Positions 11,881-44,122 of a stretch of DNA of 44,927 nt are shown one piece after another. Source of the stretch: Phoronis australis (Eukaryota > Animalia > Phoronida); assembly GCA_002633005.1 (NCBI GenBank), contig NMRA01000001.1, forward strand, positions 4,813,235-4,858,161, given 5' to 3'. The notes beneath the pieces are model-generated. The model was not told where the DNA came from, did not search any database, and worked only from the letters and a program-made list of their open reading frames with translations. The position numbers and the translations under genes are program-made. Position 1 is the first letter of the stretch; each line of letters opens with the position of its first letter.

Positions 11881-12260
11881 TGGAGAAGAGAATTGGTGGT
11901 GGGCAGCTGGAGAATTGTCAAGTAGAATTGATGGCAACCAGGATAGGTATAGAAAATCTTTTGTGATTGATTCGTGGTTGGGAATCACAAAGTTGATAAT
12001 TTTACATGCATGAAGTGGAGACTCACCCTCTTGGTGTATCATACGTGAACCACAAATATACATCACTATGATCACTTGGGACAAGGCCCCAGACAACTTA
12101 AGACTAAAGCAAAATGTGAATGCTTAGTTCCATTTCTGGTCTAAAATGTCGACATATTGTTTACTGCAATTTCCTTGGCCTGTAGATTAATTTGTAAATT
12201 TTGATTTATGGTTCTGCAAATGACTAATAGGCACAATACTAGGGCCATTAACATACATAC

Positions 12261-19924: not shown

Positions 19925-19971
19925 AGAAGTAGTAGCAGAAGTAGCAGCAGCAGGACCAGCAGCATCAACAG

Positions 19972-20034
<63 letters not shown>
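19925..20034. repeat. (CAG)n / (AGT)n trinucleotide repeat
   Basis: Seen directly; pure CAG run at 19978-20028. Confidence 0.95.
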
Positions 20035-20830: not shown

Positions 20831-21144
20831 AGTTAGTGATGGTGAATCCTCCCGTCCAAGCAATCAATCAACTCCATTTTGACCATGTTTTATGATGTGA
20901 AATTACAAAAAAGGTTTACTCAAAACACGAACACAAGATAGCGGGGCATGGAGGTTTAACTTTTTTAGATAAATAAATAATTTTTGAATAGAAAGCAACG
21001 GCATCAAAAGTTAAATGAGCAGTGTCCCAAACCAGCACAGGTCAATGGGGTCAGCTAAGGATACATTAATTAGCACGGTCAAGTGAACCATGCCTAATGT
21101 GTCACGATAGCTATTTCTTGGATTCCGTTTCAGGCTCGATGACC

Positions 21145-21171
21145 GTCATGGTAACAAAATTCCTTTAAATA
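21145..21171 (+). promoter_or_regulatory. Putative core promoter of paralog A (GTCATGGTAAC + TTTAAATA)
   Basis: Lies ~55 nt upstream of the ATG. The same motif pair with near-identical spacing precedes paralog B (34744-34769, 36599-36624). Confidence 0.55.
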
Positions 21172-21225
21172 TGAGGCACCCTCAGCAGGATCTTCAACTG
21201 CGGTCTCCACAGACGAAGCAGAACC

Positions 21226-21237
21226 ATGAAACTCAAG
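21226..21237 (+). CDS. Paralog A exon 1 (MKLK)
   Basis: accATGAAACTCAAG|gtaaga, phase 0. The same peptide and donor position occur in paralog B, and it completes the signal peptide of exon 2. Confidence 0.8.
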
Positions 21238-21439
21238 GTAAGACGCACAAACCATGGCTTCCGCGTCGGCTTGACTCTAATTTTGTGATTGATATGTTGT
21301 TAGTTTGAGAAGCGAAATTTTAAGTTGTTGTGGACTCACTGTTAGAGTCAGATGTTGCCAAACATTTTCATGGCGACTGTAGGTTGTACATTGCCTAATG
21401 AATTATCTTGACGTACTGTACGGTCAGCTGTGCCCGGTT

Positions 21440-21848
21440 GCATGAAACAGCCCCAAATAGGGACTTAAATAAGTTCCTTGAATATTTCACGTATTTGCTT
21501 CGTTCTTTACTCAGAGATGTAGCACTTTCTTCCAATATTTTATCTTTATTGCGAGCTCCTCTTTGACTTATGACATTTCCTAATGATATAACTAAAAACT
21601 TAGCTCTTAATTCAGTCAAAATAATTATGGACTTAGCCCTTAAATTAAGGGCGTTGCATGAAAAGGACCAAACGTATTTTCAATAATATTGAGAATTGAA
21701 CGTAGACTTTACTCTCGATTTGTATCAAAGCTAATTGACAGTAATGAGACTCAAACAGCATAAGAAAGGACAATCAGTGTTTTCACAAACCCAAAAATAC
21801 GCAGTAGATTTAGGGAACTTAGCTGAGTTCCTATTTGGGACTGTTTAC
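21440..21848 (-). mobile_element. MITE copy 2 with ~35-nt terminal inverted repeats, in intron 1 of paralog A
   Basis: aaacagccccaaatagggactta...aagttcc at the left, ggaacttagctgagttcctatttgggactgttt at the right; homologous to 5885-6310. Confidence 0.7.
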
Positions 21849-22091
21849 AACATCGCATATTGACTACCTGTCAATAAAGCTTTCACATGTTTAAATGATA
21901 TATTTGGGTTTTTCGAACATTGTTGACAATAAATTTGGATCTAAGTTACGAAAAAATGGAACAAGCCTATGTGATGCTGCAATATATTTGAAACAGTAAA
22001 CTTGTAAACCTACTGCATTGATTGTCGCACAAGTGGTGTGGTGCATGCCTGGGCCATATGCATTTGTATCTTTTTTGCCAAAACTGATCGA

Positions 22092-22093
<2 letters not shown>

Positions 22094-22137
<44 letters not shown>
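22094..22137. repeat. (TA)n microsatellite
   Basis: Seen directly. Confidence 0.95.
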
Positions 22138-22143
<6 letters not shown>

Positions 22144-23709
22144 CGTAATGCGTATACGTATTGAAAGCCAAAGCGGAAAAATTTCCCGGACACATGTGTT
22201 TTCTATTCAGGAATTAAAATCTCTGCAGGACCAAAAAACAACTCAAAACCAGAATTTGTTACACCAGGACCAACACTTCATCACACCTGGACCAAAATTT
22301 AACTTTTTCAGTATTGGCTTTCCATACATACGTATACATAATAAACTTTAAGCCGAGTGAAAAATCAACACTGGAATGCTCCCGTGACTGGAACGTATTG
22401 TTCAAGGGGGGTGTTTATTGATTTCTTCTGTTAATGTCTTCCTGGTTTCATGTGATATGAATAGAAATATACTATTGAAGTCATTATGAAAATCGACTAG
22501 TGCTGGTCCATCCTAGTCATACACGTCTATGTCAAGGTCCATTAATATCTGTCAAGCCATTTCGACCACAGCCAACGGACAGACAGTATCTTGTTCAAAA
22601 TTAAAATGGCCAACAGAGGTTACGGTAGTGTAATCTCTGCCAGCTCTTCTTAGTCCGTTTACTATTAAACGAATTATTTAGATTAGAATTATGATGGCAC
22701 TCAACAGTTTTTTTGCTGATTTTGGGTTTGAAAAACCAGGTCGTGTTAGCTCAAGTAATCTGTTCCACAGGATGCACAAAATCTGAAATATGAAATTTGT
22801 ACTAGACCAAAAACTTCAAAAACCTTGCACAAAGTCTATCGAAACTGATTCCAAAGTAAAATTTTCCGGCTACTTGAATAACGATCAAGAATTCACCAAA
22901 TCACCAATTTTCACCCCAAAGTCAACATTGGCACGCGATTACTGCGAACTAAGAGGCAGAGCACCTGGACTGCCAAAACTTTTTACACAATAGCATGTTA
23001 GTAGAAAAACAGGTTTCGACCAGCCACATATTTTACAAATCCAAAGTTGCTGACTAGGGTACCTGAATTTCCAGCTAAGTTTCAGCTTCCCGCTTGCCAG
23101 CAGTAAAAGTTCAATAAAAGCCAAGGCTGAACAAAAAGTAACGAGAGAGTCACTGAACAACTGGCAATATTTCAAGGAGGGCAAATTAAAAAATCAAGCC
23201 AATGCCATTCGTAGCCTTCACATGCAACACAGAATTTTAAATGCCCAGCCAACCCAGCGGGGCCAAGTCTTAAAGGAAATGGGCAGACAAATTCAACTAT
23301 GTGGTTCAAAAAACTATTGAGTGTCACTCAAATACCAGAGAATAGACAGCTCCGTTCTATTCTAACTAATGATTGGCCATAGAAATGACGTCAAGTAACT
23401 GACGAAAGCTAGCCCTCCAAACAAGGACATTCTTTGTTACTCATAGTTCCATATTGTTGTCTGCTGGGTAACGAGTTTACATAAAACAGTTTTAGTGAAC
23501 TATGGCACAAGGACCAAGAACTAAGNACAAAACAAATGAGCAATAGCTCAAACAAATTAAACCGCGATTCCTCGAAATGACGTCATAAACAGCCAAATCA
23601 AATATCTATCAACAGTATTTAATCTATGCCCGCTACATTGCCTGTGTAAGATACGTCTACGAGCACCACTTGCTTATTCGATCAAAGTGCCTCTTTATGT
23701 TTGTTTCAG

Positions 23710-24176
23710 TATATCGCCGTTCTACTGTCCTTGGCGCTGGCCGTGACCTTGGTTATCACTGAAGAGACTAATCAAGAGGAAGATGTTAGCCAACAGGCCG
23801 AAGTGCAGACCGAGGAGCAAGCAGTAGAAGAACGCAGCGAGAACGAAGAGGTCGCGCAACAGGAAACGGAAGAAGCGGAGCAGACAGAGGAAGAGACGAC
23901 TGAAGAAGAGAGAGGATTAGAGGAAGAAGGAGAAGAAGCAGAGGAAGAGGAAGAGGAGACGACGAATGAAGAAGAGCGAAGTCTGGAAGAGGAAAAAGAA
24001 GACGAAGTCGAAGAAGAAAATGTTGAAGAAAGAAGCGAAGGAGACGAGGAAGAGGTCACTGAGGAAAGGGGTATCCTCCGTTATAAACGGTGCCGAACCA
24101 AAAAATTTAAAGCGTACAAGTATAGAGGAATTCGATACAGATATCCAGTTACCAATGTAGCCTGCAGACGTCAAAA
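23710..24176 (+). CDS. Paralog A exon 2: signal peptide, Glu-rich propeptide with five xEER motifs, first half of a basic cystine-knot-like domain
   Basis: tttgtttcag| acceptor (phase 0), hydrophobic YIAVLLSLALAVTLVIT, acidic tract, then GILRYKRCRTKK...VACRRQ and donor AA|gtgagt (phase 2). Confidence 0.9.
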
Positions 24177-24639
24177 GTGAGTACCCGTCACTAGGGTTAT
24201 TTGGAATATTATCGACAAGTCTGATCATTTAGCAAAAATAAGAGCAAAACTATAGAAGTTAACTATTCATTTTCTGAAGTTAAAAAACTTTTAGAATTTG
24301 ATTTTTGACTTTGTACCAATTTGCCACTTATTAGGTCATGTGACATGTCTTTTTATTAAAATTTACTAAAAAGAATGATGCATTCGATCAAAGTGAAGTA
24401 ACGTTGTCAGTTACATCGCCAAATTTCGCAAATGTTATATTTCAAAACGCTGTTACATTGTTGTAAATTATCATTTCGTTTTCGTTTAATTCAACTTTTA
24501 AACCTTTGATAGCCCCTCACACCAAAGTGTAGAATTTCAAAAACAATTTCTAAAGTAGTGATAAAGTGCAGTCTCTGAAAGCTCCATATGAGTCCGAAAG
24601 CACAGCTGTCAGGTAATATTGTCGTTATAATTGTTGCAG

Positions 24640-24797
24640 CGCTCTATGTAATCGACCTCGTTATGGGCGATGTAGAACCAAGTACGTCTCTTTTGTCGCG
24701 TATGGATATTGTGGTTACTGTAGAAGCAAGTGGAACAAGAATAGGCGCTGCGGTCTCGTCAAGTTCTGGGCAAGAAAAGCAGTCGGATGTAACTGTG
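24640..24797 (+). CDS. Paralog A exon 3: second half of the cystine-knot-like domain
   Basis: ttgttgcag| acceptor, in frame with the phase-2 donor. Encodes (N)ALCNRPRYGRCRTKYVSFVAYGYCGYCRSKWNKNRRCGLVKFWARKAVGCNC, then G|gtaagt. This frame is conserved in paralog B and is absent from the ORF track. Confidence 0.85.
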
Positions 24798-25825
24798 GTA
24801 AGTACAGAGCATTGGAGTCAATATGTTGCTCATAACATATAATCCCCCGCGAGAACAAAATAGTGCGAATATTTCATTAAATGCTTTAAAGGAACATTAC
24901 AATCGCTTTACAAACAATGCAGATTTGGAATTATTGGTGAATAGCATAGTCTTTTTAAAGTAATTAGCTTTGACCGGATCTATGAAACAACAGAATCCTT
25001 TCTCGTTTTGTAATTTTATTACAAATCACCAAGTATCACCTGCCAGATGTTCGCTGAAATCAAAGCAGGGGCCTACTATACTCCGCTCAATGATATATAA
25101 AGCTCATTGACTCTGCTATAGTTGCCACGTGCGATTTCGCGCAGCGTTAAATCGTTCTGTTACCGCTTCCTAAGTTGTGGGTTCGACTTCGTGCTAGCGA
25201 TAATTTCAACGAGATTGTCCATATAAAATATGGAATTGAACACCAACGTAGGGAAATGGCGACGATGTTTTTAATGGTTTTTGGTTTCATCAAGAGCAAT
25301 CGTTGACGATTGAGTTCGCTCAGAGAACGTGAGTCAACCATCAGTGTTCCAATTGTATGTGCATATTCCATGCGCCTGTATCTGACAAATGCAGTTGTTT
25401 AGCATACAAGCGCATGCAATGCTCTTTTAAAAATATCACGGTCTCTCGAGCACAACATTACATTGAGCCCTACCAATACAACTGCTCATATATGTAGCCA
25501 TAAAAATGTAAAATGAGTATCAAAAGTACAGAGCACCTGGACGTCGTCCGCAGGTGGCTTGGGTGTACAAAACGCAACTCTCTACAAACCAAAGATAATA
25601 ATAATTCAAAACAAAACTTACAGTTTGCCATTCGTGTACTTGTATTCTCGGATACTTGAACATACGTATTCGTGTACTTATGTATCGACTAGATAAAGCC
25701 AATTGTTTATGTACACTAAACGCCACTCGAAAATTATGAACATATACCTACATTTGATTTTATATCATTGTATGTGCGCCCTTCTGCCTAGATATATTTA
25801 TAACAGCAGTACTGATGTGTTCCAG

Positions 25826-26118
25826 TGAGAAGACCCTGTCGCAAACCCAAGTGCCCCAAGTGGTGCCCCTTCGGTGTACACTACCCTGTTTACTATGGCT
25901 GCAGGGTGTGCAGATGTCGACCTCGCCCAATCTGTAGGCGTCCCAAATGCCCCAAACGGTGTCGCTATGGTTACGCATACTACTCTTGCAGGAGGTGCAA
26001 GTGTTGCAAATGCAGGTCCAGACCCAGGTGCCCGCCAGTCAAATACTGTCGACCAGGATGTTACGTCATCAAAGTAAAAGGTTGCAACAAATGCTGGTGC
26101 GTCCCACGTCCTTGGTAG
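25826..26118 (+). CDS. Paralog A exon 4: three cationic antistasin-like Cys repeats, stop
   Basis: gtgttccag| acceptor (phase 1). Repeats follow C-x4-C-x3-C-xxG...C-xx-C-x-C, ending in TAG. The four exons total 930 nt (309 aa). Confidence 0.85.
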
Positions 26119-26188
26119 CGCAACTGAAACAATGACAGTTTATCGTCACTTTCATACATGCAGTTTTGACTTTTGTGCAACTGAAACC

Positions 26189-26194
26189 AATAAA
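26189..26194 (+). promoter_or_regulatory. Probable polyadenylation signal of paralog A
   Basis: AATAAA 70 nt after the stop codon. Confidence 0.55.
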
Positions 26195-29100
26195 TTTAAA
26201 TTGCATAATCTGTACACTTGTTGCTTGAGAACCTTGTTCATGTAGTGCCGCCCGTACTGCAGGCCTGTGCGACCCTCCACTGACACTAGTGCAGAACACA
26301 ATAGTCAGCATGCTGATGTCTTCCATCGTTACTGAACGAATAACCTGTGTAGGCACTATGAAGGCATTTTCATCAAGTGAAGTAGGCATTATGTGCTGAT
26401 AAAACGACACTGGTGCAAAATCGTAAGGCCCTTTTATACTAACTTCGGTCGTTCGACGATAACAGCGCCAGTAAACTTCGCAGTAAGCGGCACATGTGGA
26501 TTTAACAGCTAAGCGTCGACGCTGCGGTGCAGTATGAAGGATCATCTTCTGTCCCATCGAAGTTATCGCCAGGGGCCACTGTCATCGCCGACAAGTAAAG
26601 GGCAATGTCGTCGCTGATAGTTGCTTATATTTTGCTCAAATAATCACCAATCGAATTAGAAATAAGTTTTATGTCAATTAGCACACGTACTTCCCAAATT
26701 GTTACATTAAAAAATTTTAGCGTGCGCGCGAAGCATCAGCGTTACCTTGCGATTTCTTCGGTGACAACAGCGTCACATGCCGTTTACTTCGATGTACGTT
26801 AACTACCGAAACTGGTACGAAGGGTTCAGTAAACTTGGCAGTTTACGTCGACGATCCGTTCAGACCGAAGATAAGTCAATATGAAAGGGCGTTTAGAAAT
26901 GTCGGCAGCTTGCGTCTACTATGCAAAAGAACACAAGCGATGGGTGCATGCAAATTTCCAAAAACCAGCCAGCTATGTAGCTGAAATTGGCAGCAGTAAA
27001 CTAGGGATCAGCTCTCGAAAGCGATCTTCGTTCTGTCCACCCAAAATTATAATTTGCGATCATCTACACAGGAAAATTTTATCTCTGTCTAACGTCCAGT
27101 CCGAAACTTTTTGTAACTCTTGCATTTGACCGACACTCACCATGTCCTGCGGGCTATTAAAAGAAACATAATGAAAGAATTATCAGTCACGTGCACAAGA
27201 AGTCGGTCATCGACTTGATAGCAAACTAGTCGTGACAAGCGGTTACTGGGAATTTCCAATATATGCTAGCGTCCATCACACACAGAAAAAAAAACAAATA
27301 CGGGAGCTGTTTGGAAAAGAAGTAAGAAATAGAACCCATGGGCGATTTTTAGGTAACAGTAAATGACAGTAAAGAAAAGCTGTCGCCCTAGGCGCAGGAA
27401 ATCTCCGGTATTAACAAAACACGTAAAGCAGGAGCTAGTGACAACTTTGCCTGCAGCCGAAATGACCAGGAATTCAGTTTCTAGAGCGTGCTTAAAATTC
27501 CACGAAATGTAACCAATTCGAAAAAATTGTTGCGTACTGACATAATCTTGTGAAGAAAGGACTTCACTGAAGAAACAACCGGCTCAAAGCTAACACATAC
27601 GACCGCTCCACAAACTTAGCTACAAATTTACGGAAAGTAGCTTCATCATTGTCTTAATATCAGCTTCATTTTTAATGAGACATTCATTGTTGATAATGTA
27701 TTGGTTGCAAAGTCGATATCAAGACTCATCTGAAGTGATTCCAGTGAAGGTAAGCTTTCATCTCTTACTATGCAACACGCCGACGCGACTCGAGAGATCG
27801 CACGGTCAGTCACGCACCCTCGTGTTTCAATAACAGGCCACGTGCATGCATTGATTGCTGTCTTTATCATCTGATATACCCACCTTATTTGGAATCGTAA
27901 ATACATGAACGCACCAAAAAGTCCTTGAATTGTTACCACTTAGGTTGGCGAACTCCACTCGAGCGGCTGGGCTACCAGATGAGATCCATGTTATCAGAAA
28001 AAGAGATGTTATGCTGTTGAAGTCACGTTTTGCATTGAATGGGCATGCATAAATTTTAAGATTTAATGTCCCGAGGCAATATCCTCACCAGGCGATTTCA
28101 ACAACGAGCACCTAAACCGTTCGGTGACGCTCAGAGTAACACACTTGACTAATCCGACATAACCAACCAGAGTTGTGCTGTCACTGACCACTAACCGCCG
28201 ACTTTCAAAGTGTTGTCTTGTAACGTAATAGGAGACCTAGTAACAAGTTTTCCCGTGCAAAATAAAATTTGGAAAATATTTAGTCACTATAACACAGTCT
28301 TAAATTTATTAATAACATTCTTCAACATTTTGTGTCATCAAAGTGACATTGATTACCTTGCTAGTAGGGGACTTAGTCTCGTTACAGCCTCCAGTGCGCA
28401 GTCGACGTCGTATAAGCCATATTACGGTCAAGTTCTTGACTGTGATGACGTCTTTTTGGACAGTCGCGTGAGTTGACCAGCCTGATAGTTGTCGTTAACT
28501 TACAAATGCTGCAGCGAATACACAAAACACCGTTTGTGTGTTATTATTCTGCACAAAATGAATTGCAAGTTCAAGTATCCTTTAAACTGCAAATGTAGGA
28601 TAAGGTTTGCCGGCATGAGCGCTGGGCATTTGGTGCAAACCATAGACACGTAGTAGAATACACATTAACACCAGTACCGACTAGCGGAGAATGATTTTAC
28701 TTTAATGCATCTGAGTGTTGCCGAAACCCGGAGGACACCAAAGTACATTTGAAGAAAAAAACAATATGTGCCTTGTTGAGAAGGGCAGCCCTCATTGCAA
28801 ACATACTTGACGTTACTTTTACGACCTATCATGAGCCAAACTAAATGTGAACCATCTAATCCGCCTGTGCTAGCAGTTGTAGTCGTTAGCAACCACTAGA
28901 TGACACCCGCTTCGTTGACGTCGGACACGGTGGCTATTAAGATATCGTACAATTAAAGTATATGACATTTTACGAGTCCCCAAACACAAACAAATATTCG
29001 TATACGCCCCTTTGGCTCGAAAAACCGTACCAGAACACAACATTCCGAGTTGTATACGACAGTTGATTACAAACGACTAGGCTTAAAAATCGCAGTGTGC

Positions 29101-30149
29101 AGACAAGGCTGAACACAGACATTGCACCAGATGCGCTAAAGTTGGACTCTAATGTTAAGGCGTTAAACATGTATTGTCGCTGCAAGACAAAATCAATAGC
29201 ATTGCCAACGCAATTAGCCCGAGAGATGCAATCACAGTGCGTCACTGAAAAATCTAAGGGAGGTGCACTGTTATATAAATATCCTTGCTACGATTAAAAG
29301 ATATTACTGTTTTATACTCACTTGTTGTAAATATGCTCCTCCTCGGTCATTATCACATTTTTGAGGTCTGTAAAGCACATTACTGACCTTGTAATATTCC
29401 AACAGTAACTAAATTATATCGTATTTCTAGATAAAAAAGAAATGGGAAAAGAAAATTTTTATAGGGACAATTATTTCCCGCTTGAGTTCATTCAGCGGCA
29501 GAGAGAATGGCTGTTTTTGAAAAAAAGAAGTCCTAATAGGGTTATCCTAAAAAGCCCCCGTTGAGTAATTGAGCGACTGTATGGAAAACAGCGAAATCCC
29601 AACAAAAGTTTTTTTGTTTTCTTTAACTTTCAACATTAAGATTTACAATGAATAAGACTGTCAAAAATCGCATTGTCCAGGAGCAGGTTGCATAAAACAG
29701 GATAGGAGGATCCAGGGCAGGGGTTCAAGAGGTCTGGTGGTTCCCCATTTTTACCAATAGCGGCAAACAAAAACCACAGGGAAAATGAACAACTTCTATT
29801 TTCTACTTCTTAGTCCTAAATTAGGATCGTTTCGTGAAAATTTTTTCATTAATACTAAGAGTTTAACCAAAAGTTTACACCCGGTGTTCGTCAAAGCTAA
29901 AAATTGAATTGGTAATGGAAATAAAATATCGAAATGAATCGGTGTTTGAACAAATCCAGACATGTGGCGAAAACACAGAAGTCTTTGGAATACATTTCTT
30001 GCATACCGAATCTTGTTTTATAAAATTGTGTTACACAACAAGACACTGGGGGTAAAGTTTTTTGCGACAACTTCACTCGAAAACACGAATTTTGTTTTGA
30101 ATATTTTTTAAGATCCTGACGCATGTCGGAGAGCGGTAACAAAATGAAT

Positions 30150-31370
30150 TTATCTTCTTATGATCCTGCCAGCAACATCAAGAGAAGAATTTTATCTATT
30201 AGAATGTTTGTTCTTCAAGTTTATTTGGCAGCGTAAACCTGACCGAAATTGTTAAGAATTTAGAGCATGGTGGTTGCAAAATGATTCATATTGAATCTTT
30301 TTTTAAATTACCGAAATTGTCTTGGTTTAGAAGATTATTAGATGGTTATGATGACAATTGGAAACACCTGTTGCTGCATCATAATCTGTTGAGAACGTGT
30401 AACTCTTTACTTTTTGGAGATGCGTTTTATAGCACTTGAGCAGAAGACATTAAGAATGTATTTTGGTCTGAGCCCTCTTTACATATGTAGCATATACTAT
30501 GCGTTTGTACGGTGATGACTTCTGTTACACTCCAGTCTGATACAACAGCAGCGTATTAATATATAACAATATAATTTTTTATATCCAGTTGTTTAAAAAG
30601 TATTACTCATGATTGTAATTTGTTAGATATTGATGGAAGATTTAGGACTTATCAGTCCTTTTGTATTAGGTATGGCTTTTCTCCACCTTTCACATCGTTT
30701 TATGGTTTCAAGAAGACAATTTGTAAATGGAAAAAAGGATCCCAGGCAATGTCCTTTCATGTTAATCTCCGAAATATGCGAGTTGTACTTGTAAGTTTAG
30801 CGAAAAAACAAACATATTCTCACTTAATTAATTCTATTTATACAAAGCCAAAACATGAACGTAAGTGGGAAACTAACCTTGGTATTGATGCATCTCCTGA
30901 TTGGTGGAGAAAGCCGTATACTTATTCGTTACAAATTACTGTTGATACTAGACGGTTTCAGATTAGTTTTATACATCGGTTAACACCAACAGAAGATTGA
31001 AGTTAAAGATACAGATCTATGTACATTTTGTGAAATAGTGTCAGAGAACATTACCCATCTGTATTGGAACTGTGATTTAACAAAGATTTTTTGTATTCCA
31101 GTTGATGACTGGATCATGAACAAAACCGGAAACTCGTCACAGCTTTCAAATTAAGATACATTTCTTGGACAGATTGAGGGAAAAGACGTAATTAATCTAA
31201 TTGAATGTTAAGGAAAATTTCATATTTATCGGCAACGTCTTAAAAACACCATTACTAATTTGACATACTTCAAAAGAGAAGTCGTTCTATTTTTTCAAAA
31301 TTGAAAAATATTTGTTTTAAATAATCTACAATTTGAAGATTTTAAGAACAGATGGCCCCTTATGGAAATT
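30150..31370 (+). mobile_element. Decayed L1/Tx1-like LINE ORF2 C-terminal part
   Basis: LLDIDGRFRTYQSF...KWETNLGI...RFQISFIHR, then LCTFCEIVSENITHLYWNC (zf-RVT-like), with stops and frameshifts. Confidence 0.8.
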
Positions 31371-32688
31371 TTATTTTGTGGCAGTTTGTTTTTGAGTTGC
31401 AAATGACCCCCACCACAAGTGTGCACGTCTCTATGTATGCGGCTACCATGTATGCATGTTTTCTCTTCATTTTCACATTGAGTAAAAAGTATTAAGTTTA
31501 ATTTTAAAAAACGCATATGTAATTTCCAAAGGGACAACAAAACAACTGTTTATAATTTGAAAAAAATCAAACCCGGAAAAGCGTAACACTCCTCTATTTC
31601 CTTAACCTGATTTCCTTTTTACAAAAATTTAAGGGAGGCATGGAACGCGAAAGTTCGTTAAAATATATCTTTTAAACAATTCCTGACGAACGTACCATCT
31701 CGCAGCGTCTAGTACAGATTAATTCACTTTCCCCTGTGAGGAAATTCCCAGAAAAAAAACAAAATTCACGAGTTTTGAAGTACGCGCAAAGAAATAATTG
31801 TGGTTACCACAGAGTTTCTAATCTCCCTCTCACTAATAATAAATGCGTGCATGCGCTCATAGTCAGTTGAAGTCAAAGGTAACATTTTCCTTATCAGGGA
31901 AATGTGCTATGTCTATGTCTTACCATACCAAATAAGGAGACGTGCTTTGCCTTCAACATAGAGGCGAGCAGTTGACAGATCGTTTTTTTGAAATTTGAAA
32001 CTAAAAAATCATGCCTTAATATCAACAGAAATTAAAAATCTTTACGAACAAACCCCAGAAATACCTTGTAAGTAGGTTGAATTCTGTTTCAGTGACCGAG
32101 AATCACTTTGAATATTGCAATTTAGTATGTTAATCGCGTTCTAGGCGTCTTCAAATATTTTTTAATTTTGTAAAGTCATGCAAAAATGTCCCATAAAACG
32201 CGCACCGTTGTGTTTCTTCATTGCTAAATTAGCGCATTATTGCGATTCGTCTGACCATGAAACTTGTCAGTGTCGGCTGGAAATATTGCAAACACTTACA
32301 ATTAACTTCTCTCATGTAGATCGTTGGTTTACTGATCAATTGATTCATATGTTCACCAGAGGTCAGAATTCTAAAAGTTGACTAAATGATAACCGTGGAT
32401 GCCAGTGAAACAATCAAAAGACAACTGTCCAACATTACACCAGGGAGGGCTGCAAGGGTCACTGGATCAACACATTATGATTTCTTATTTCCAAAAAACG
32501 AAAAATCCTCTTCGAAGCATTGAAGCTTCCAAAGGGAAATTCCTGGTATGTTTCAAAATCCTTAAACATATCAACTAATTCACAAAGGCCTTAAGGAAAA
32601 AAGGTCACCTAGAGAAATGCAGTGCTTTGTTGACCCTATTTCTTATGCCTAGTTTAGTAAAAAAATTACCGACGTTCACTTTAGGCGA

Positions 32689-33800
32689 TAGTCCATTCAG
32701 ATTAGGAAATCACGTCCTTGGCTATTTTTGGGGGTCAATATAATTTTGGTGGTTTTAGTGTCATTAAGTGGTATACTTTTAGAATCGAAAAACGGGCCCA
32801 AGGCTTGGCTTGCACGTTTTCGAGAAATTTGACCAAAAATGACATTTTGCAACATTTGGCACAGAAAAACATTCTTTAAAACCAACAACACTGAGCAAAA
32901 ACTAAATGATTATTTAATTTGGTTTTGTTCATTTGAAGTCACTAGACAAGAAAAGTGATAAATATTTTGAAATTAGTGGGACAAAAAGAGTTGAAAAGAA
33001 AAATAAATATTTTAGCAGCGTCTCCTGTTGGCCAAAAATACATTATTGTAGTACGAGCTCAAAAGGACAGCATTTTTAACCATTTTGAAATTGATGAAGA
33101 TTTTATATTCAAATCAAATTGTGAATAACTTAACATTTCCAATGCTTCTTCGTTGAATTGGCCATCATCACTTTCACAGTCAAAATTCTCATTATCCACA
33201 TAGCCTCTGATCGTCAACCAGCGCGGGGAGGAGTCACTGAATACAGTTCTGACAGTAGCACACAACACACAATGAGCACCACAGAATGTTGGTAACATTT
33301 TCCATAATGTTACAATTTTTAAAATCTTTAGCAACACAGCAACACATTTATCAAGTGCTTCATCAAAATCATCATCATAGTCAGTAAAAATTTTTGAGAC
33401 ACCATATTACTCACTCACACAGCTCGGAACATGGCATGTCTGACTTCAACCAAGAGCAGATCTTTGCACCAGCCGCTTTTTCATATTTATATTTGCAGTT
33501 AACATTTATCATGACTTGTTCTGGGGCTAATGGCAGAGTTATCCAGTGAAATTTCATATTACCGTGTTCAAATTCTAACCACTACATTTTTAACATGGTG
33601 TAAAATTAGGCATGAAAGTTAGTGATAAGCAGAACTGACCACTTACAGATTAGTAAAAACTGCCACCAATGATTTCAGTTGAGTTAGGGACAGCCAATTG
33701 AGTGCAAATTTCCACTAATTAGGGACAAGCTCAGACCTCAAGCAAAAAATTCAATTTTTGGATGTCCAAACAAGAGATTTTTAACCGTAATTCATAGCTT
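32689..33800 (-). mobile_element. Relic of an Academ-like DNA transposon (C-terminal Cys8/CXC finger and terminus)
   Basis: The - strand at ~33410-33585 reads FHWITLPLAPEQVMINVNCKYK...ICSWLKSDMPCSELCE*, a decayed W..LP.AP...CxC...CSC...CxxLCxC pattern, followed by acidic tracts. A TAG-starting putative terminus lies at 32689. Confidence 0.5.
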
Positions 33801-34845
33801 ATTCAACTAAGGTACTGATCGGTCGATGTTTCAACGTCCGAAAACTTTTCATAATAAATTGTATTTCTTTTTCTTTGTTTGGTTGTCTGTAAATTGTAGC
33901 CCACACCGTTTTTTGGCAACTAACGCATTCTTAAGGCAGTACACGCCTCTTTCTTTGAGCACTGTTAAGCGGAACTCACAAATTCCTTGGTATTCTACTA
34001 CTAGTACTAGGCTCTACCTCAGCTCAATGTTTCTTTGATCAGCTTTCAAGATATTTTTTCCTTGTGTAAGAGATCTTTCAATTTTCGTTACACAGGTGAA
34101 TTTCTGTAAGACTGACTGTTGGCACCTAGTGGCAAGCAAAATATTTGATTCTTGTTTTTTTCCAGCTTTTAAACTAAAATTCTTACTAAACGTGCAAGTG
34201 TATTCCTGGGAACTTTGCTGAAAGTGATTTTTGAGTGTCTGAAGAAGGACTTGTTTCAAAGTTACCGTTGCCCCCCTGAAGTAGCCATGGGCGTGAAAGA
34301 TACAGCTGGAACTATGAGCCTACATTCACGCCCCAATAACTTTGCACTTATTACATTCGAGCACATGATTTATAAAGAGACGTGACAATCATCAAAATGG
34401 TCATAATGAGCGAGTCGTGAATTAGAATGACATTTGATAAGCAAAAAAGTTAACAGATGTCATTTTCATGGAACGTTTCGAATTTCCTATGTGTACGGCG
34501 ACACCTGAACAGATAGAAAAAAACAACATTTATCACAAACTACACCTAACATCAAACGGTGTTACCTGTAACAGTTGAAGATAACACGGACAATTACATA
34601 ATTATACGATGTAGAAATACATCTGAAAATATGATAAAAAGTAAGCCCAATGTACAAAAGGCATCAATCTAATAATCAAAAACAAAAGCACTTTTCTGGT
34701 GACGACTAATCCCGTAAGGTCACACACCCTCGTTCGGATCAATGTCATGGTTACAGAATCGTTTAAATACCAGATGGTCTGAGCAGGACGTTCATATGCT
34801 CTGTGCAAAGCGTTCATCTGCAGCTGTTGCGGACGCACTGAAACA

Positions 34846-34857
34846 ATGAAGCTTAAG
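34846..34857 (+). CDS. Paralog B exon 1 (MKLK), copy in first duplicate
   Basis: acaATGAAGCTTAAG|gtaaag. Confidence 0.65.
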
Positions 34858-36700
34858 GTAAAGTTCACAATCTCACAGAGTAACAGAATCAAATCTGATC
34901 TCCGGCCCGTGAACGAAGCAATTCGCTTATCCGCAAACTTGTTCTCTTTTACAAAGTTCACACAAGTCCATGAAAATATTGTGTGTTAACTGCTGATAGC
35001 AAAGCTTTTTTTTCCGGATGACGTCAGATCATTGCACAGCAAGCGGGCCGATAACGTACTGTATAAGCTTACCTGGGCCTGTACCAGAGTCTTTTCTGGC
35101 TTTAGACGAGGGGTCACGATGAGTATTAGTGGTGGAATCGTATGTTTAATCAGTAACCGTTTCAAATCCAAGACTCGATTCTGAATCGATTTTGAGTGAA
35201 ACTGCCACTGGGTACTGAAAATGCTCAGTTTTCGCCATGGAAGGTTATCGCGGGCCCAGATCCAAACACGGAGGCTCTGTTTCTGTGTAGAGCTACAGAT
35301 GGTGCTGCCCTACGCGTCTGAAAGAATTGTTTAGCAATGCTAGATTTGTTTGCCGCCGTGGAGACAGGCTCATTTACGTGCATTTTCATTTTTAACGAGA
35401 CCGCGTGATCGATTTTACTGTCTTGGAGTCAACTACGATTCGATGCTCATCTTTAGCGACGATGTCGGCGCGCAAGGCGTCCAATTGTTGGCAACGATAA
35501 GGATGACTATCCAACATGTAAATTACTCGCTGCTTTTACTGTTTCCAAGTATGAAGAGCTGGCTTTAGAAAAAAAATTGAAGATTGTTACGATAAGTTTA
35601 TATTACTAATCACTTAAACTAGCGACTATGCATTACCAATCGAAAATAAAGTAGGTCTGTTACCAGATGATATTGAATAATTTTGAAAAGTTGCACCTTT
35701 CGGGAGAATCGCAGTAATCTGCAGTATGAAAAATTGTGTACCTTATTACATCCTTGCACAGNGTAGCCCACATCGTTTTTGGCAACTAACGCATTCTTAA
35801 GGCAGTACACGCCTCTTTCTTTGAGCACTGTTAAACGGAACTCACAAATTCCTTGGTATTCTACTACTAGTACTAGGCTCTCCCTCAACTGAATGTTTCT
35901 TTGATCAGCTTTCAAGATATTTTTTCCTTGTGTAAGAGATCTTTCAATTTTCGTTACACAGGTGAATTTCTGTAAGACTGACTGTTGGCACCTAGTGGCA
36001 AGCAAATTATTTGATTCTTGTTTTTTCCAGCTTTGAAACTAAAATTCTTACTAAACGTGCAAGTGTATTCCTGGAAACTTTGCTGAAAGTGATTTTTGAG
36101 TGTCTGAAGGACTTGTTTCAAAGTTACCATTGCCCCCCTGAAGTAGCCATGGACGTGAAAGATACAGCTGGAACTATGTGCCTACATTCACGCCCCAATA
36201 ACTTTGCACTTATTGCATTCGAGCACATGATTTATAAAGAGACGTGACAATCAAAATGGTCATAATGAGCGAGTCGTGAATTAGGATGACATTTGATAAG
36301 CAAAAAAGTTAACAGATGTCTTTTTCATGGAACGTTTCGAATTTCCTATGTGTACGGCGACACCTGAACAGATAGAAAAAAACAACATTTATCACAAACT
36401 ACACCTAACATCAAACGGTGTTACCTGTGGCAGTTGAAGATGACACGGACAATTACATATACGATGTAGAAATACATCTGAAAATATGATAAAAAGTAAG
36501 CCCAATGTACAAAAGGCATCAATCTAATAATTAAAAACAAAGGCACTTTTCTGGTGACGACTAATCTCGTAAGGTCAGACACCGTCGTTCGGATCAATGT
36601 CATGGTTACAGAATCGTTTAAATACCAGATGGTTTGAGCAGGAAGTTCATACGCTCTGTGCAAAGCGTTCATCTGCAGCTGTCACGGACGCACTGAAACA

Positions 36701-36712
36701 ATGAAGCTTAAG
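36701..36712 (+). CDS. Paralog B exon 1 (MKLK), copy in second duplicate
   Basis: acaATGAAGCTTAAG|gtaaag, phase 0, homologous to 21226-21237. Confidence 0.75.
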
Positions 36713-38075
36713 GTAAAGTTCACAATCTCACAGAGTAACAGAATCAAATCTGATCTCTGGCCCGTGTGCGAAGCAATTCGCTTATCCGCAAACTTGTTCT
36801 CTTTTACAAAGTTCACACATGTCCATGAAAATATTGTGTGTTAACTGCTGATAGCAAAGCTTGTTTTTCTGGATGACGTCAGATCATTGCACAGCAAGCG
36901 CGCCGACAACGTACTGTACAAGCTTACCTAGGCTTGTACCAGAGTCTTTTCTGTCTTTAGACGAGGGGTCACGATGAGTATTAGTGGTGGAATCGTATGT
37001 TTAATCAGTAACCGTTTCAAATCCAAGACTCGATTCTGAATCGATTTTGAGTGAAACTGCCACTGGGTACTGAAAATGCTCAGTTTTCGCCATGGAAGGT
37101 TATCGCGGGCCCAGATCCAAACACGGAGGCTCTGTTTCTGTGTAGAGCTACAGATGGTGCTGCCCTACGCGTCTGAAAGAATTGTTTAGCAATGCTAGAT
37201 TTGTTTGCCGCCGTGGAGACAGGCTCATTTACGTGCATTTTCATTTTTAACGAGACCGCGTGATCGATTTTACTGTCTTGGAGTCAACTACGATTCGATG
37301 CTCATCTTTAGCGACGATGTCGGCGCGCAAGGCGTCCAATTGTTGGCAACGATAAGGATGACTATCCAACATGTAAATTACTCGCTGCTTTTACTGTTTC
37401 CAAGTATGAAGAGCTGGCTTTAGAAAAAAAATTGAAGATTGTTACGATAAGTTTATATTACTAATCACTTAAACTAGCGACTATGCATTACCAATCGAAA
37501 ATAAAGTAGGTCTGTTACCAGATGATATTGAATAATTTTGAAAAGTTGCACCTTTCGGGAGAATCGCAGTAATCTGCAGTATGAAAAATTGTGTACCTTA
37601 TTACATCCTTGCACAGCCTTTGGAACACATTTTATATTCCCAGGGTAAATATAACGAAGGAGGGTTTGGAATAAAAAAGTATGCACTTTCTGTAGGCATT
37701 GAATATTAAAGAGACATTATCGTTTTTACGGCCGAAAACTCATTTTTGGGTTACTGTCTTATGGGAAAGACTTTTTAAGCATGAAAATAGCAAAATCCGT
37801 GGTATTCTGTGATTTTATTGGAAATCACAGTTGTCTGCCAGACATTCGCTGAAATCAAGGGTGGTGATTTTACCACCTAGATAGGTTTATAATACTTTAT
37901 TTTTCGATTGGGATTTAGAACCGCTAGCGGCGCATTTGACTGCGTTTGAGGTTCCAAACCGCGTAGGGGCTGGTTGCAGAAGACCACTTGTGTATATCTA
38001 GTGATTGGAGCACAGGTCAATACAACGTACAACTTCGTTCAACCGACTCGGACAACAGTGTTCTGTATGTTACAG

Positions 38076-38446
38076 TCTATTGTCGGGCTACTAACCTTCG
38101 CGCTCATCTCGATTTTGGCCATCGCTAAAGAGCCCAGGCAACTAGATGCGGCGAGTGAAGACGCATGGCAAGAACTAGATGAACGCAGCGAGGAAATGGC
38201 GCAAGAGAGAATGGAGGGGACAGAAGATGACGAAGAGGCGGATGAGGAAGATCGAGGTTTAGAGGAAGAAGAAGGCGAAGAAGCGGATATTGACGAAAGA
38301 AGCAAAGATGCCAATGAGGAAGACGTTGAAAAAAGACAGAATTGGAGCAAGACGAGAGGATGTCACACCAAAGTTTTCAAAACATTCGAATACAGAGGAT
38401 TCAGATACAAATATCCGATCAGGAGTGTTGCATGTGAACATGAAAA
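38076..38446 (+). CDS. Paralog B exon 2: signal peptide, acidic propeptide, first half of cystine-knot-like domain
   Basis: tgttacag| acceptor, SIVGLLTFALISILAIA, DER/EDR/EKR sites, CHTKVFKTFEYRGFRYKYPIRSVAC, and donor AA|gtaagc at the same position as in paralog A. Confidence 0.85.
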
Positions 38447-38959
38447 GTAAGCACAGGCTGTTTAACTTAAAACTGCATTTCAACCTGTTTAACTGGTTAA
38501 AAACGACAATCGAATTAGGATTTTACTTTCATAAAATCGGTCTCACGATGTCTTTTCCGTTACCAATTAATCAAGGCAAAGGCAATGCGTACCTGCGCAT
38601 TTTCGAATTCGCAGTTTTAGGGTAGGCCGACCCCAATTAACAACGGAAGCGTTTTCTCCGAGTCGCTGAAGATTTCGACTGACGTTCTTGTTCTTAACTG
38701 AACTAGAATCTTATCATGATACTGGGTCGATTTTGTAATAAGTAAAATGCCAAATTCGACTTTCATTTTAGCGGGGTGAAATGCAGTTAATGCTTTATAG
38801 TAGTTTAAATTATAAAACTGCAGGCCATTCACTCTGGTACAATTTTCTGAGAGTCTTTATTGGTGGGGAATCTCGGGTTTTCGCCTCATACTTTTATAAG
38901 TTTTAGATAAGTAATGTGGACGCCACGCCCAGTCAGGAAGCTGCGATATAAGGAATTAG

Positions 38960-39119
38960 GGTACCAACTGTCGTTCACGTTATTACGGTCAATGTCAAAC
39001 TAAATATGTCACCTTCGTCACTAATGGTTACTGCGGTCACTGTGGATACACACCTTGGCACAAAAGGAATTGTGGTCTTGTCAGATTCTACGCCAGAAAA
39101 GCTGTCGGATGTAACTGCG
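38960..39119 (+). pseudogene. Paralog B exon 3 homolog with no in-frame acceptor as assembled
   Basis: Encodes GTNCRSRYYGQCQTKYVTFVTNGYCGHCGYTPWHKRNCGLVRFYARKAVGCNC then G|gtgagt, clearly homologous to A. The nearest AG (38958-38959) gives the wrong phase, and an in-frame TAG blocks upstream acceptors. Confidence 0.6.
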
Positions 39120-39708
39120 GTGAGTAGACTCTTAAAGACTCAATTGTCCGGTTCCGTTTCATCGGTTCACAGCCATGGAGATATCTTCTAATTTAAAACT
39201 TTCGGAGGTGTGACGGAGATAACTTAACAGTGGATTAGCAGCTGCCTTAGTCACTCTCTGGTTGTTGTCATCTTTTATTGGATTAAAAGCCTGTGAACGT
39301 GCGCATAGTGTTGCGTCTGCATACTTATATATAAATAAAAGTAGTCAATGGCTGCTCTCATAATTTCAGAATTTCTTTATTTTCAAAGAAAAATGTACCT
39401 GCAGGTAAAAAACAACGCTTGTAACCACACCAAATATGTTGGTTTCAGGTGACGTTTGGATTGTCATTTCGACTCATTTTCTTGCAGATAAAAATGAATT
39501 AGCTTATGAAATTTGCATCATCTTTACACGACACTAATGAAACACAAAACAATTGTTTTTCAAATATGTAGGAAGCTTTGTAGGTATAGAATCTACCTTT
39601 CACTTCGACATTGAATTTGGACGGACGATGCCGTGTTCGGTGATGTCCAAATCGGTGTTAGTTCGAAATGAGTATTTCCTCACCTCACAATACTAATTTA
39701 TATTTCAG

Positions 39709-39830
39709 TAAGAAGAGCCTGCCACAAACCCAAATGCCCAAAATACTGTCGCTACGGTTACTACTGGTACACCGTCCAGAGCTGCAAGTATTGCAAGTGT
39801 AGGCGTTACTATGGTGGCGGGGGAAAATAA
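39709..39830 (+). pseudogene. Paralog B exon 4 homolog: single antistasin-like repeat ending GGGGK*; 1 extra nt after the canonical acceptor
   Basis: tatttcag|TAAGAAGAGCCTTGC versus A ccag|TGAGAAGACCCTGT. The Cys frame reads PCHKPKCPKYCRYGYYWYTVQSCKYCKCRRYYGGGGK*. Confidence 0.6.
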
Positions 39831-41404
39831 ATGACAACGCATTGCAGTGTTCACTCGTCACTAGCTACAACCTGAAATGCTTAAACATTCGTCAAAGTAA
39901 AGAAATTATACTGCTCTGCATTCCAACATTTTTTGGTAAATGTTGTGCTTTTGGAAAATAATGTAGTCCTTGTTTACCCGAATTTTGAATCATTGAAAAT
40001 CTTTACTCTCCTTGCTGGTTCATGGAACTTAGAAATAAATTATACTCCACCCATACATCTACTTGTCTTGTTGATTTCCTCTTACGAACTATAACTTTTC
40101 AAGTCATTAAAATATATTTTTCTCAGTTATCTCTCGTCTCCCAGCCATTTTTGTTTTCACCTGAGGAGTCATCGTGGACTTGCGGTGAACTGTGGGTTCT
40201 GTTATTACGCCAACCCTTCCATACGACGGTCATATGAGATACTCAGCGGCCGGATTTCCTTGAACAGAGTTCATAATTGAACGCTAATATAATTCAGTGT
40301 CAAAAATACATAGATGTAGACAAATATTGCCAACGGACTATCACGACGAATCTACCAACTTCGACGTCAAAAGCACAATCTTTTGCTATGTTAGGGTTGT
40401 ATTTATCAAAGGTAAGGTTTTGATTTTTAAAATGTAGACCAAACTGTGGATTGTAGTAGTAGCCTCGGGTGATTACGGGGCTGGCTACAACCGGGACACG
40501 GCTGAGGTCGAATTTGGGGTTCTGTTGTTTCACGTGCAGTTCACGAATACTTAGGCGCTGAATTTGCTTATTTAGCTAGCTGAAAATACGAAACAACTGA
40601 ATTAAACTTTTCATTCTCCTATCTCAAAAATTGGACTCACAATATTCCGTTATTAACAAAAACATTAAAACCAATAGCGTTACAAAAAAAAAAAAAACGT
40701 TTCAGAGTTTATTGTGGTTGGCAACCTTAAAATTCAAATTCGAAAATGGCGCATTACTTGTGACTGGAATTGGTAACGGAAATGTAATTCTACAAGGGAA
40801 AGGAATATCACAAGATCGACTTATGAAAGTAAAAGGCTAAGTCCGATGTACGTTTTCAGCCAGGGCGAAATAAAGCTTCGATTGAATCTATGAAGACGTG
40901 TCAGAGAAGGGGAGCAATTTCTGTCTAAACTTTAGCAGAGAGGGGTGGAAAGTTTCAGGAAAAAATGGAAATTTTGTCTGTGTGGAGGGGGGGGGGGATC
41001 TAACGTCATTAGGCATTTTCAGTAATAGGCATTTTCAGTAAAAGAAAACATTAAAAACGTTTGTTTCTCCTATAAGTTACTCGTTAGTGTACGTTAGCTT
41101 CAGTCACCTAAGAATTACTAGGGGGGAAATTCAGGCCATTTATTGTTACCATATCAATTCAAACATAAAAACACAATGACCTGCTTCAGAAGAGCAGACG
41201 TTCTTAACAACATTAAATATGGTTCACAAGTGTGTATGTTACTTTTATTTGTTTTGTGAAGTCACTTTTGGGATTGTTCTAATCTTTTATTTGGGAATAA
41301 TGACTTGTACCTTATTTCCATATTACAAGTTTTATGACTGTGGACACTTACTCAGTTGGGTAAAGTCCAGAAGTATAAGTTTAACAGTGTGTTAAGCAGT
41401 AGTA

Positions 41405-42683: not shown

Positions 42684-42965
42684 TACACACACTCAGACAT
42701 CTCCTTCAACCTTGCCAAAAATATTGTTTTGAAAGTACACCCACCCAGATATCTCATTCAACCATGCCTAGCACATTATTCAAGCACACCTACCCAGATA
42801 TCTCATTCAACCATGCCTAGCACATTATTCAAGTACACCCACCCAGATATCTCATTCAACCATGCCTAGCACATTATTCAAGTACACCTACCCAGATATC
42901 TCATTCAACCATGCCTAGCACATTATTCAAGCACACCTACCCAGATATCTCCTTCAACCTTGCCG
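42684..42965. repeat. 49-nt tandem repeat (~6 copies) derived from the MRPL49 exon end and splice donor
   Basis: cccagatatc recurs at 42744, 42793, 42842, 42891 and 42940, with a degenerate copy at ~42692. Confidence 0.9.
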
Positions 42966-43525: not shown

Positions 43526-43689
43526 CTGCACCAAAAAATTATTTAGATCCATGTATAAAGTAAAACAAGTTACAGTAGTTACACAAAGTTAGAGAGAGGC
43601 TATGTGCTGCCTAGACAGTGACCACCGTTTCTAGCTGGCCCTAAGAGACAATGAAGCTGCTAATATAGGCGCTTCATACGCTGAAAGCT

Positions 43690-44122
43690 TTCAAGCAAAT
43701 TATGCCTCACATTGATTAAAACATCAAAGCCACGTTATTATAAGTACCTTTTGTGCATAGAGGGATACCCTAGGAGGCAGTTGATAGTCTTTAATTCCTT
43801 CCAACTCGAACAAATACTCCCGTAATCAAACATTTTTTTCGAGCAGTTCTTTGTTCAGTTGCCCAAATCGGCAACTGGCCATTTTTACACTTCGCGCACC
43901 CTTATTTTTGCTACGCTCGACAGGAGTGCACCTAGTGTTAAAAATGACCATACGGATTTCAACTGAACGAAGGACTGCTAAAAAAACGTCTGATTGCAGG
44001 AGTATTTGGAAGGAATTAAAGACTTCGACAGCCTCCTAAGGTGTCCCTCTATATGCAAAAGGTAGTAATAACAATGTGACTTTGATGTTTTAACCAGTGT
44101 GACGTATAATTCTGCTGTGAAA
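43690..44122. mobile_element. MITE-like element with long (~130 nt) degenerate inverted repeats
   Basis: ttaaaacatcaaag...ctttaattccttccaa pairs with ttggaaggaattaaag...ctttgatgttttaa. Confidence 0.7.

Follow-up and report, generated by a model that had tools for sequence, protein, structure and literature searches.

Two tandem genes for predicted secreted, charge-balanced, cysteine-rich precursors in Phoronis australis

In the window (the whole stretch of DNA analysed, 44,927 nt of contig NMRA01000001.1), two tandem paralogs, A and B, encode a real, expressed, predicted-secreted and apparently lineage-restricted pair of proteins, as supported by RNA reads and homologue searches. In both, the propiece nearly cancels the charge of the mature part, a feature new here. 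From gene structure, expression, composition, charge balance and Cys framework, we consider evenly poised the proposal that they form an abundant, sample-restricted stored host-defence protein pair, charge-neutral until cleavage at Arg.

Structure, expression and homologues of the paralogs

The preliminary description had proposed that paralog A splices into an intact 309-aa protein through junctions 21237/23710, 24176/24640 and 24797/25826. All three were seen in RNA reads of X1 and X2, and exons, phases and junction reads agree. The introns are bounded by GT/AG and lie in phases 0, 2 and 1, and 930 nt encode the 309 residues plus the stop. Introns 1, 2 and 3 were spanned by 7,568, 5,138 and 3,134 reads in X1 and by 184, 203 and 119 in X2 (about 22-36-fold below X1); none was listed in X3, and one X4 contig spanned intron 3. 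First mates were nearly all minus-strand, which fits plus-strand RNA, and RNA ends accumulated at 21207-21208, 18-19 nt upstream of the ATG. The gene structure of paralog A is thus confirmed. The minor acceptor within exon 4 omits 166 nt and changes the frame, so that the predicted isoform lacks the antistasin-like repeats and ends in a 27-residue Cys-free tail. In X1, 213 reads joined 39117 back to 25825, with a short side of only 23 letters. A B-A chimera was rejected as their source; the simpler reading is a candidate A allele whose short overhang matches B better. With a first coding exon of 12 nt and no homologue in the databases, paralog A is the type of gene overlooked by ORF-based annotation, although it accounts for about 0.4% of X1 reads.

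Paralog B encodes 220 aa with the same phases as A, and the exons and RNA reads of both genes bear out the proposed common architecture, MKLK micro-exon included. Its introns 1, 2 and 3 were spanned by 90-380-fold fewer X1 reads than those of A. The acceptor before its exon 3 is non-canonical (GG) in the assembly; reads nonetheless splice there. The B micro-exon is present twice, at 34846-34857 and 36701-36712, within a 1.87-kb duplication, and the TATA-like 8-mer of A recurs at 34762 and 36617, 84 nt upstream of each B start codon. This duplication is probably an assembly artefact, namely a false haplotype duplication. Coordinates are collected in Table 1.

Table 1. Positions of the paralog A and B features within the window
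Feature	Positions	Strand	Content	Support or basis
TATA-like box, paralog A	21164..21171	+	about 40 nt upstream of transcript start	putative promoter
Paralog A exon 1	21207..21237	+	short 5' UTR and 12-nt coding micro-exon 21226-21237 (MKLK), phase 0	RNA ends, junction reads
Paralog A exon 2	23710..24176	+	signal-peptide hydrophobic core, Glu-rich propiece, first two mature-domain Cys	signal peptide predicted
Paralog A exon 3	24640..24797	+	seven Cys completing the nine-Cys domain, terminal CxC	putative cystine knot
Paralog A exon 4, coding part	25826..26118	+	three antistasin-like six-Cys repeats; stop 26116-26118	
Minor alternative acceptor in A exon 4	25992..26118	+		101 reads X1, 5 X2
Paralog A 3' UTR	26119..26206	+	AATAAA at 26189	
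Tandem duplication	33896..37616	.	1.87 kb, 97% identical, single N at 35762 between copies	two copies of B promoter and micro-exon
Paralog B exon 1, coding micro-exon (MKLK)	36701..36712	+	phase 0	junction reads: 20 X1, 1 X2
Paralog B exon 2	38076..38446	+	signal core, acidic propiece shorter than in A, cleavage predicted at Lys-Arg ahead of Gln; first two Cys	
Paralog B exon 3	38962..39119	+	158 nt as in A, 63% identical to A	30 reads X1
Paralog B exon 4	39709..39830	+	one antistasin-like repeat, Gly-rich end, final Gly-Lys	35 reads X1

Paralog A drew about 3,800 reads per million in X1, 276 in X2 and 136 in X3, the X3 reads being nearly all repeats; we read this abundance as effector-like and sample-restricted. 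The spacing of the first 15 Cys is identical in A and B, and tblastn within the 45-kb window found these two paralogs only. In five of five blocks dN was below dS, and in the mature blocks (29-51 codons, with dS near saturation) dN/dS was about 0.2-0.6, showing no excess of amino-acid change.

The domain combination had been described as unlike any known protein, and no described homologue was found for the exons searched. No Pfam family was matched by these exons at the cut-off, and none of the four ORFs looked up exactly was present in the protein collection. A two-sequence exon-3 profile run with HMMER against 1.84 billion protein representatives gave three matches, all rejected as repeat proteins whose score was the sum of 6-19 short stretches. 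Word-index searches with exons 3 and 4 against longer proteins found nothing (weak evidence), and the ESM Atlas gave no usable match to either exon, with low recognition scores. PDB sequence searches produced no match below E 0.4, Rfam none, and none of 91 pattern matches in metagenome contigs was confirmed. At the level of titles and abstracts, no description of this architecture was found in the literature, although transcriptome supplements could list such proteins. Tandem duplication, dN below dS in all blocks and the lack of a detected homologue fit a lineage-restricted effector.

Charge balance of the precursors

A signal peptide, a Glu-rich pro-region and an Arg/Lys/Tyr/Cys-rich mature part free of Asp and Glu had been proposed for A; the computed composition agrees, and secretion is predicted. 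The predicted signal-peptide core is a hydrophobic 11-mer at residues 6-16 in A and 10-20 in B. Residues 21-123 of A are 50% Glu. Position 123 holds the last acidic residue, and the stretch of 186 residues downstream of it contains 35 Arg, 29 Cys, 21 Lys and 19 Tyr and not one Asp or Glu (P = 4e-10 by chance, assuming a background of 11%). The last cleavage of the A propiece is predicted after Arg124 (24067-24069), leaving a mature part of 185 residues with 29 Cys. The lack of acidic residues does not extend to B, whose mature part (129 residues, 15 Cys) has three.

Net charges of propiece and mature part are -49 and +55 in A, and -25 and +24 in B, a balance that is stable to the choice of signal-peptide cut. 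An anionic propiece approximately matching its cationic mature part was thus found in two of two genes, related by descent, and the earlier suggestion that the acidic propiece neutralises the cationic part gains support from this. A 'charge balance hypothesis' has been put forward for alpha-defensins and cathelicidins (PMC4571063), whose precursors, as described there, likewise have a signal peptide and an anionic propiece that tracks the cationic mature charge. However, the charges of A and B are several-fold larger (avian cathelicidins, about -5/+8.5), their mature parts have 129-185 residues and 15-29 Cys, and there is no sequence match. Compared by description, the lineage-restricted Hydra periculin-1 also joins an anionic N-terminal to a cationic Cys-rich C-terminal region, with eight Cys rather than a nine-Cys domain and one to three six-Cys repeats (PMC11767717).

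If the pair serves host defence, the acidic propiece would mask a disulfide-rich, Arg/Lys/Tyr-rich effector during storage. Both precursors would be secreted, and the mature part would be set free by a cut behind Arg124 (A) or behind Lys-Arg (B), that of B with an N-terminal Gln and with a C-terminal Gly-Lys as a possible amidation signal. The nine-Cys domain would then fold, and the released protein, at +55 (A) or +24 (B), might bind anionic microbial surfaces and kill, clump or trap microbes, while the antistasin-like repeats would serve as stable cationic arms rather than as protease inhibitors. Several observations weigh against this reading: A is far bigger than typical antimicrobial peptides, dN/dS is without an excess of amino-acid change, and beta-strand amphipathicity was not above that of shuffles in six of six segments (best, 346/5,000). 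The charge balance itself rests on two genes of common ancestry, and masking would be equally required by any very cationic secreted cargo, whether glue, clot or toxin.

A toxin was one of four functions first offered, the others being an antimicrobial, a Toll-type ligand and a tube or adhesive protein. Glu-Arg sites recall venom-precursor processing motifs, and their repetition in the propiece (five in A), with the sample-restricted abundance, would suit a defensive or predatory toxin that is processed at Glu-Arg, comes from skin mucus or a gland and targets animal membranes or channels. Antistasin-like proteins are also described in nemertean toxin proteomes (PMC12846013). However, no toxin family was matched in Pfam or PDB, and the 45 kb hold two copies only, with no sign of rapid diversification; a toxin seems to us quite improbable.

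The nine-Cys domain and the antistasin-like repeats

A cystine knot had been proposed and is not established by our results. The Cys spacings in both paralogs are 23, 6, 7, 12, 2, 9, 12 and 1, and six of the nine Cys may be assigned as I-x23-II-x6-III-x7-IV-x38-V-x-VI, a spacing compatible with growth-factor knots of the Spaetzle and coagulogen type, in which disulfides join I-IV, II-V and III-VI and the chain forms two beta-hairpin fingers. Eight-membered-ring cystine knots (TGF-beta, PDGF, glycoprotein hormones, DAN) combine C-x-G-x-C with C-x-C. The terminal CxC is present here, and the CxGxC, whose Gly is conserved in such knots (PMC4079206), is absent, since the domain has no three-residue Cys spacing at all. 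Also absent is the neurotrophin consensus, [GSRE]-C-[KRL]-G-[LIVT]-[DE]-x3-[YW]-x-S-x-C (PMC2772990), which needs an Asp/Glu, lacking in the A mature part, and an 11-residue Cys spacing, found in neither paralog. Pfam knot families did not match single exons, and the model of exon 3 alone, from a domain spanning two exons, was uninformative (pLDDT 46, pTM 0.20; no Foldseek match).

The precursors do share the pre-pro plan of neurotrophin, Spaetzle and coagulogen knots (PMC3790821, PMC2772990, PMC4079206), the low-complexity acidic region with basic sites being a predicted cleavable, unstructured pro-domain between signal peptide and Cys domain, and six of their Cys could be laid out as two fingers with CxC at the end. 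Unlike those knots, A and B have no consensus motif, a putative second finger with three additional Cys, a short first finger and an extreme positive charge; the fold is putative. Signalling ligands usually reach far less than 0.4% of reads. A Spaetzle/neurotrophin-like ligand freed from a disordered pro-domain, its cationic arms binding matrix glycans, would account for the domain order, which the neurotrophin superfamily shares (PMC3790821), and for the six assignable Cys; given the missing neurotrophin consensus and knot matches, the read share and an exon 3 without homologue among the 1.84 billion proteins, we judge it very unlikely. Of the four functions offered, we rank the Toll-type ligand last, in view of the roughly 0.4% share of reads in a single sample and the net charge of +55; the antimicrobial one is favoured, at the evenly poised confidence given above.

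The first Cys-bounded loop reads YRGI-x-YR in A and YRGF-x-YK in B, and tachyplesins carry YRGI-C-YR (PMC6747087, Table 1) in a comparably Arg/Tyr/Cys-rich cationic setting, at what resembles a hairpin tip; they may also share C-terminal amidation with B. This likeness counts for the host-defence reading. Whereas tachyplesins are free hairpins of 17 residues held by two disulfides (PMC6747087), the A motif is embedded in a larger domain, within a loop of 23 residues, and lacks the flanking Cys. Chosen post hoc, it occurred in 23 of 200,000 shuffles, and PDB sequence searches, in a library without chains under 20 residues, lent the likeness no support; convergence or chance is its likely source. 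We hold it unlikely, as one form of the host-defence reading, that a Spaetzle/coagulogen-kind growth-factor knot was turned from a scaffold for signalling or clotting into a direct antimicrobial, with a tachyplesin-like finger tip, a variable number of de-activated antistasin arms and a Glu-repeat propiece sized to cancel the charge.

Antistasin repeats had been proposed as well. The three A repeats (27, 27 and 24 residues) and the single B repeat (27) all fit a six-Cys spacing pattern that we loosened, the second A repeat having two additional Cys; the count of three holds for A only. As in the antistasin family (PF02822; Hydra antistasin, leech cocoon protein), where repeats of 25-26 residues are described (PMC7851590), these are tandem six-Cys units of 24-27 residues, spaced C-x4-C-x3-C-x(7-11)-C-x2-C-x-C. 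Pfam PF02822 matched A repeat 1 with E 0.012 and 16.6 bits, below the 21.2-bit gathering cut-off, and did not match A repeats 2 and 3, the B repeat or the whole exon-4 ORF. A single-sequence repeat model (pLDDT 63, pTM 0.33) gave 92 Foldseek matches, none at E <= 0.001 and no antistasin among those listed. We treat this assignment, like that of the cystine knot, as a tentative interpretation rather than an observation. The repeats also depart from the family in lacking acidic residues and in following an acidic propiece and an unrelated domain of nine Cys. The second Cys is followed by Pro in three of the four repeats and by Arg-Pro in the fourth; since this position is presumably the reactive site (P1), a protease-inhibitor role is doubtful.

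Coagulogen has a clotting role, and glues commonly carry Gly/Ser/His-rich low-complexity blocks. For a secretion of structural, adhesive or clot-forming kind, solubility of the Tyr/Cys/Arg-rich protein would depend on the propiece; once cleaved, the protein would condense with polyanions and cross-link via Tyr or Cys to give a tube, cocoon, egg coat, glue or wound plug. Very high sample-restricted expression, a Tyr content of 10-13% and an odd number of Cys (29 in A, 15 in B), leaving one free Cys for an inter-chain bond, are in keeping with this, as are a leech cocoon protein built of antistasin-like repeats (PMC7851590), such repeats in a limpet pedal-mucus protein (PMC7333891) and the kinship of coagulogen to Spaetzle as a cystine-knot relative (PMC3790821). 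However, the mature N-terminus is compact and non-repetitive, no Gly/Ser/His-rich blocks are present, and the possible amidation signal of B would be typical of soluble bioactive peptides; we hold such a secretion to be rather unlikely.

Should the host-defence reading be true, the pair would represent a family of invertebrate defence proteins not yet described, very large, very basic and stabilised by disulfides, and would offer an unusually clean test of charge balance, the mature charge differing twofold between paralogs with the propieces in step. Should the nine-Cys domain prove to be a growth-factor knot, a connection would emerge between the Spaetzle/coagulogen scaffold and direct microbe killing; if the pair encodes a glue or clot protein instead, it would be a new charge-switched biomaterial.

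The gene pair and its transcripts

Paralog A has four exons with canonical GT/AG ends and intron phases 0, 2 and 1, giving a protein of 309 residues. RNA evidence came from raw reads of three runs sharing a species label (X1, X2 and X3; about 18-19% of each) and from contigs of a fourth, mapped to 20900-40300. The A exons and the three junctions predicted in the preliminary description were all found spliced in X1 and X2; a lack of spliced reads, which it had named as refuting the gene, was therefore not observed. Across the three introns, X1 gave 7,568, 5,138 and 3,134 junction reads and X2 184, 203 and 119, a 22-36-fold excess in X1 after library-size correction, while no A junction was listed for X3 in the same region and share of the run. 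Reads per million on this region were 3,826 in X1 and 136 in X3. A minor form joins 24797 to 25992; it has 101 reads in X1 and makes up about 3-4% of the intron-3 junctions of both X1 and X2. It is frameshifted, so that all antistasin-like six-Cys repeats are dropped and the putative cystine-knot (nine-Cys) domain is left with a 27-residue neutral tail. In the Glu-rich propiece, the acidic region behind the predicted signal peptide, 51 X1 reads showed an in-frame 63-nt step back, which may be a length variant with one extra 21-residue unit or a template-switch artefact; adjoining 63-mers there are identical at 40 of 63 positions.

Paralog B encodes 220 residues, with intron phases as in A. Its junctions were read 20, 30 and 35 times in X1, 90-378-fold less than those of A. 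The B reads carry many fixed differences to the assembly (13 of the 40 listed sites lie in exon 2, with a further 448 entries beyond the listing), indicating an origin from a different allele or from a third, closely related copy. In the assembly, the acceptor ahead of exon 3 is non-canonical, which may mean that this allele is defective or was assembled wrongly. The B promoter and micro-exon are present twice, in a 1.87-kb duplication (97% identical) with one N between the copies. Like the other N-split pair of the window, it is probably a false haplotype duplication from a polymorphic genome. The gene pair itself is real and well supported.

The surrounding DNA is of animal type and intron-rich (GC 33-45%) with few long ORFs, several ORFs being spurious because of tandem repeats. 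Two long minus-strand ORFs could be exons of a single unannotated gene; neither had a Pfam family at cut-off or an exact protein look-up match, and no homologue of the 10313-10858 ORF was found among longer proteins.

Coordinates of the features in the window
Feature	Positions	Remarks
Paralog A	21226-26118
A transcript start	21207-21208
AATAAA of A	26189	transcripts end close by
A 63-nt step	23890-23955
Paralog B exons	36701-36712, 38076-38446, 38962-39119, 39709-39830
Duplicated pair	8338-9156, 9158-10000	96% identical; single N at 9157
Minus-strand ORFs	10313-10858, 13309-13839	point away from A
Dispersed repeat	5938-6316, 21430-21799	opposite orientation, 71% alike; second copy in A intron 1, attracting repeat-derived reads in all four runs
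Broken ORFs	30203-31300	similar to the end of a LINE reverse-transcriptase gene; no Pfam match; X1 and X2 reads diverged, one strand
Inverted-repeat element	43689-44122	434 nt, arms ~75% alike; resembles miniature inverted-repeat transposon
Minisatellite-like tandem repeats, CAG run, TA run	361-780, 11664-11890, 12560-12912, 42684-42964, 19945-20026, 22094-22138

An acidic propiece and a cationic mature part

A hydrophobic stretch opens both proteins, and an acidic region dotted with Glu-Arg or Asp-Arg sites comes after it. In A, half of residues 21-123 are Glu, residue 123 is the final acidic one, and the following 186 include 35 Arg, 29 Cys, 21 Lys and 19 Tyr. Ahead of the first Cys, A has Glu-Arg124 as its final basic site and B a Lys-Arg before Gln, and the precursors would be processed there; the C-terminal Gly-Lys of B is a possible amidation signal. 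Net charges of propiece and mature part are -49 and +55 in A and -25 and +24 in B, and the entire precursors carry +8 and +1, the choice of signal cut mattering little. This charge match was absent from the preliminary description. A has three six-Cys repeats and B one; repeat number and propiece length vary together, in a small sample of two related genes.

The spacing of Cys 1-15 is identical in both proteins (23, 6, 7, 12, 2, 9, 12, 1, then 4, 4, 3, 11, 2, 1), with 63% identity in exon 3 and 48% in the exon-2 tail. dN was below dS in all five A/B blocks, each pair resting on few codons (0.33/1.75, 0.32/1.11, 0.42/0.73, 0.48/0.81 and, for the signal block, 0.46/0.51).

Relation to described families

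The preliminary description knew of no described protein with this domain combination, and none turned up in the databases and open-access literature covered, as far as single-exon queries of 31-100 residues can reach. For its second refuting condition, a full-length match to a characterised family, these queries give a partial check, in which no such family appeared. No relative was found: Pfam gave no family at cut-off for six ORFs and nine pieces, word-index protein searches with exons 3 and 4 and the ESM Atlas gave no match, PDB sequences no significant one, and 0 of 91 metagenome-contig candidates were confirmed. A full HMMER scan with an exon-3 profile returned three matches, all rejected as repeat artefacts. 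The open-access literature covered, mostly as listings, described neither the sequence family nor the combination. The lack of a family match counts against a toxin, which has a precedent in nemertean proteomes (excerpt of PMC12846013) and which we consider unlikely.

The antistasin label fits the Cys spacing, but only A repeat 1 approached PF02822 (E 0.012; 16.6 bits, short of a cut-off of 21.2); the remaining repeats, two in A and one in B, had no match. The residue behind the second Cys, which we take to be the reactive site in antistasins, is Pro in three of four repeats and Arg then Pro in the fourth. The repeats are antistasin-like and would probably not act as inhibitors. A structural, adhesive or clotting protein is the main rival to a defence role, and a tentative one: excerpts describe a leech cocoon protein built from antistasin repeats (PMC7851590) and such repeats in limpet mucus (PMC7333891), and with 10-13% Tyr and an odd number of Cys, cross-links would be possible.

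As for the knot, the pattern I-x23-II-x6-III-x7-IV-x38-V-x-VI can accommodate six of the nine Cys. The domain lacks, however, CxGxC and the neurotrophin consensus quoted in an excerpt of PMC2772990, and the model of exon 3 by itself (pLDDT 46) had no structural match. The exon-4 model (pLDDT 63) had no significant one. A cystine knot is plausible, a lead and not a result; A and B are not classed here with the antistasin or neurotrophin families.

A proposed role in host defence

The likeliest reading, with about an even chance, is a stored host-defence effector, in which the anionic propiece would neutralise the cationic mature part. Such neutralisation has been proposed for alpha-defensins and cathelicidins, which have this plan in common with A and B (excerpt of PMC4571063), and Hydra periculin-1 has a similar precursor plan (excerpt of PMC11767717). 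Between Cys1 and Cys2, the loop of A contains YRGI-x-YR and that of B YRGF-x-YK, compared with YRGI-C-YR in tachyplesins (PMC6747087, Table 1). Shuffling produced the A motif in 23 of 200,000 trials, and since it was chosen with the peptide already in mind, the likeness is a lead only. A receptor ligand, which the pre-pro plan would fit (excerpts of PMC3790821 and PMC4079206), is at odds with the abundance and with the missing neurotrophin consensus and is very improbable. Counting against a defence effector are the large size of the mature part, the lack of an excess of amino-acid change, and a beta amphipathicity that exceeded shuffles in none of six segments. Among invertebrates, orphan precursors of this cationic, Cys-rich kind are common. 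The functional plan of this pair is already known; its sequence family and domain combination are new to the databases and literature covered.
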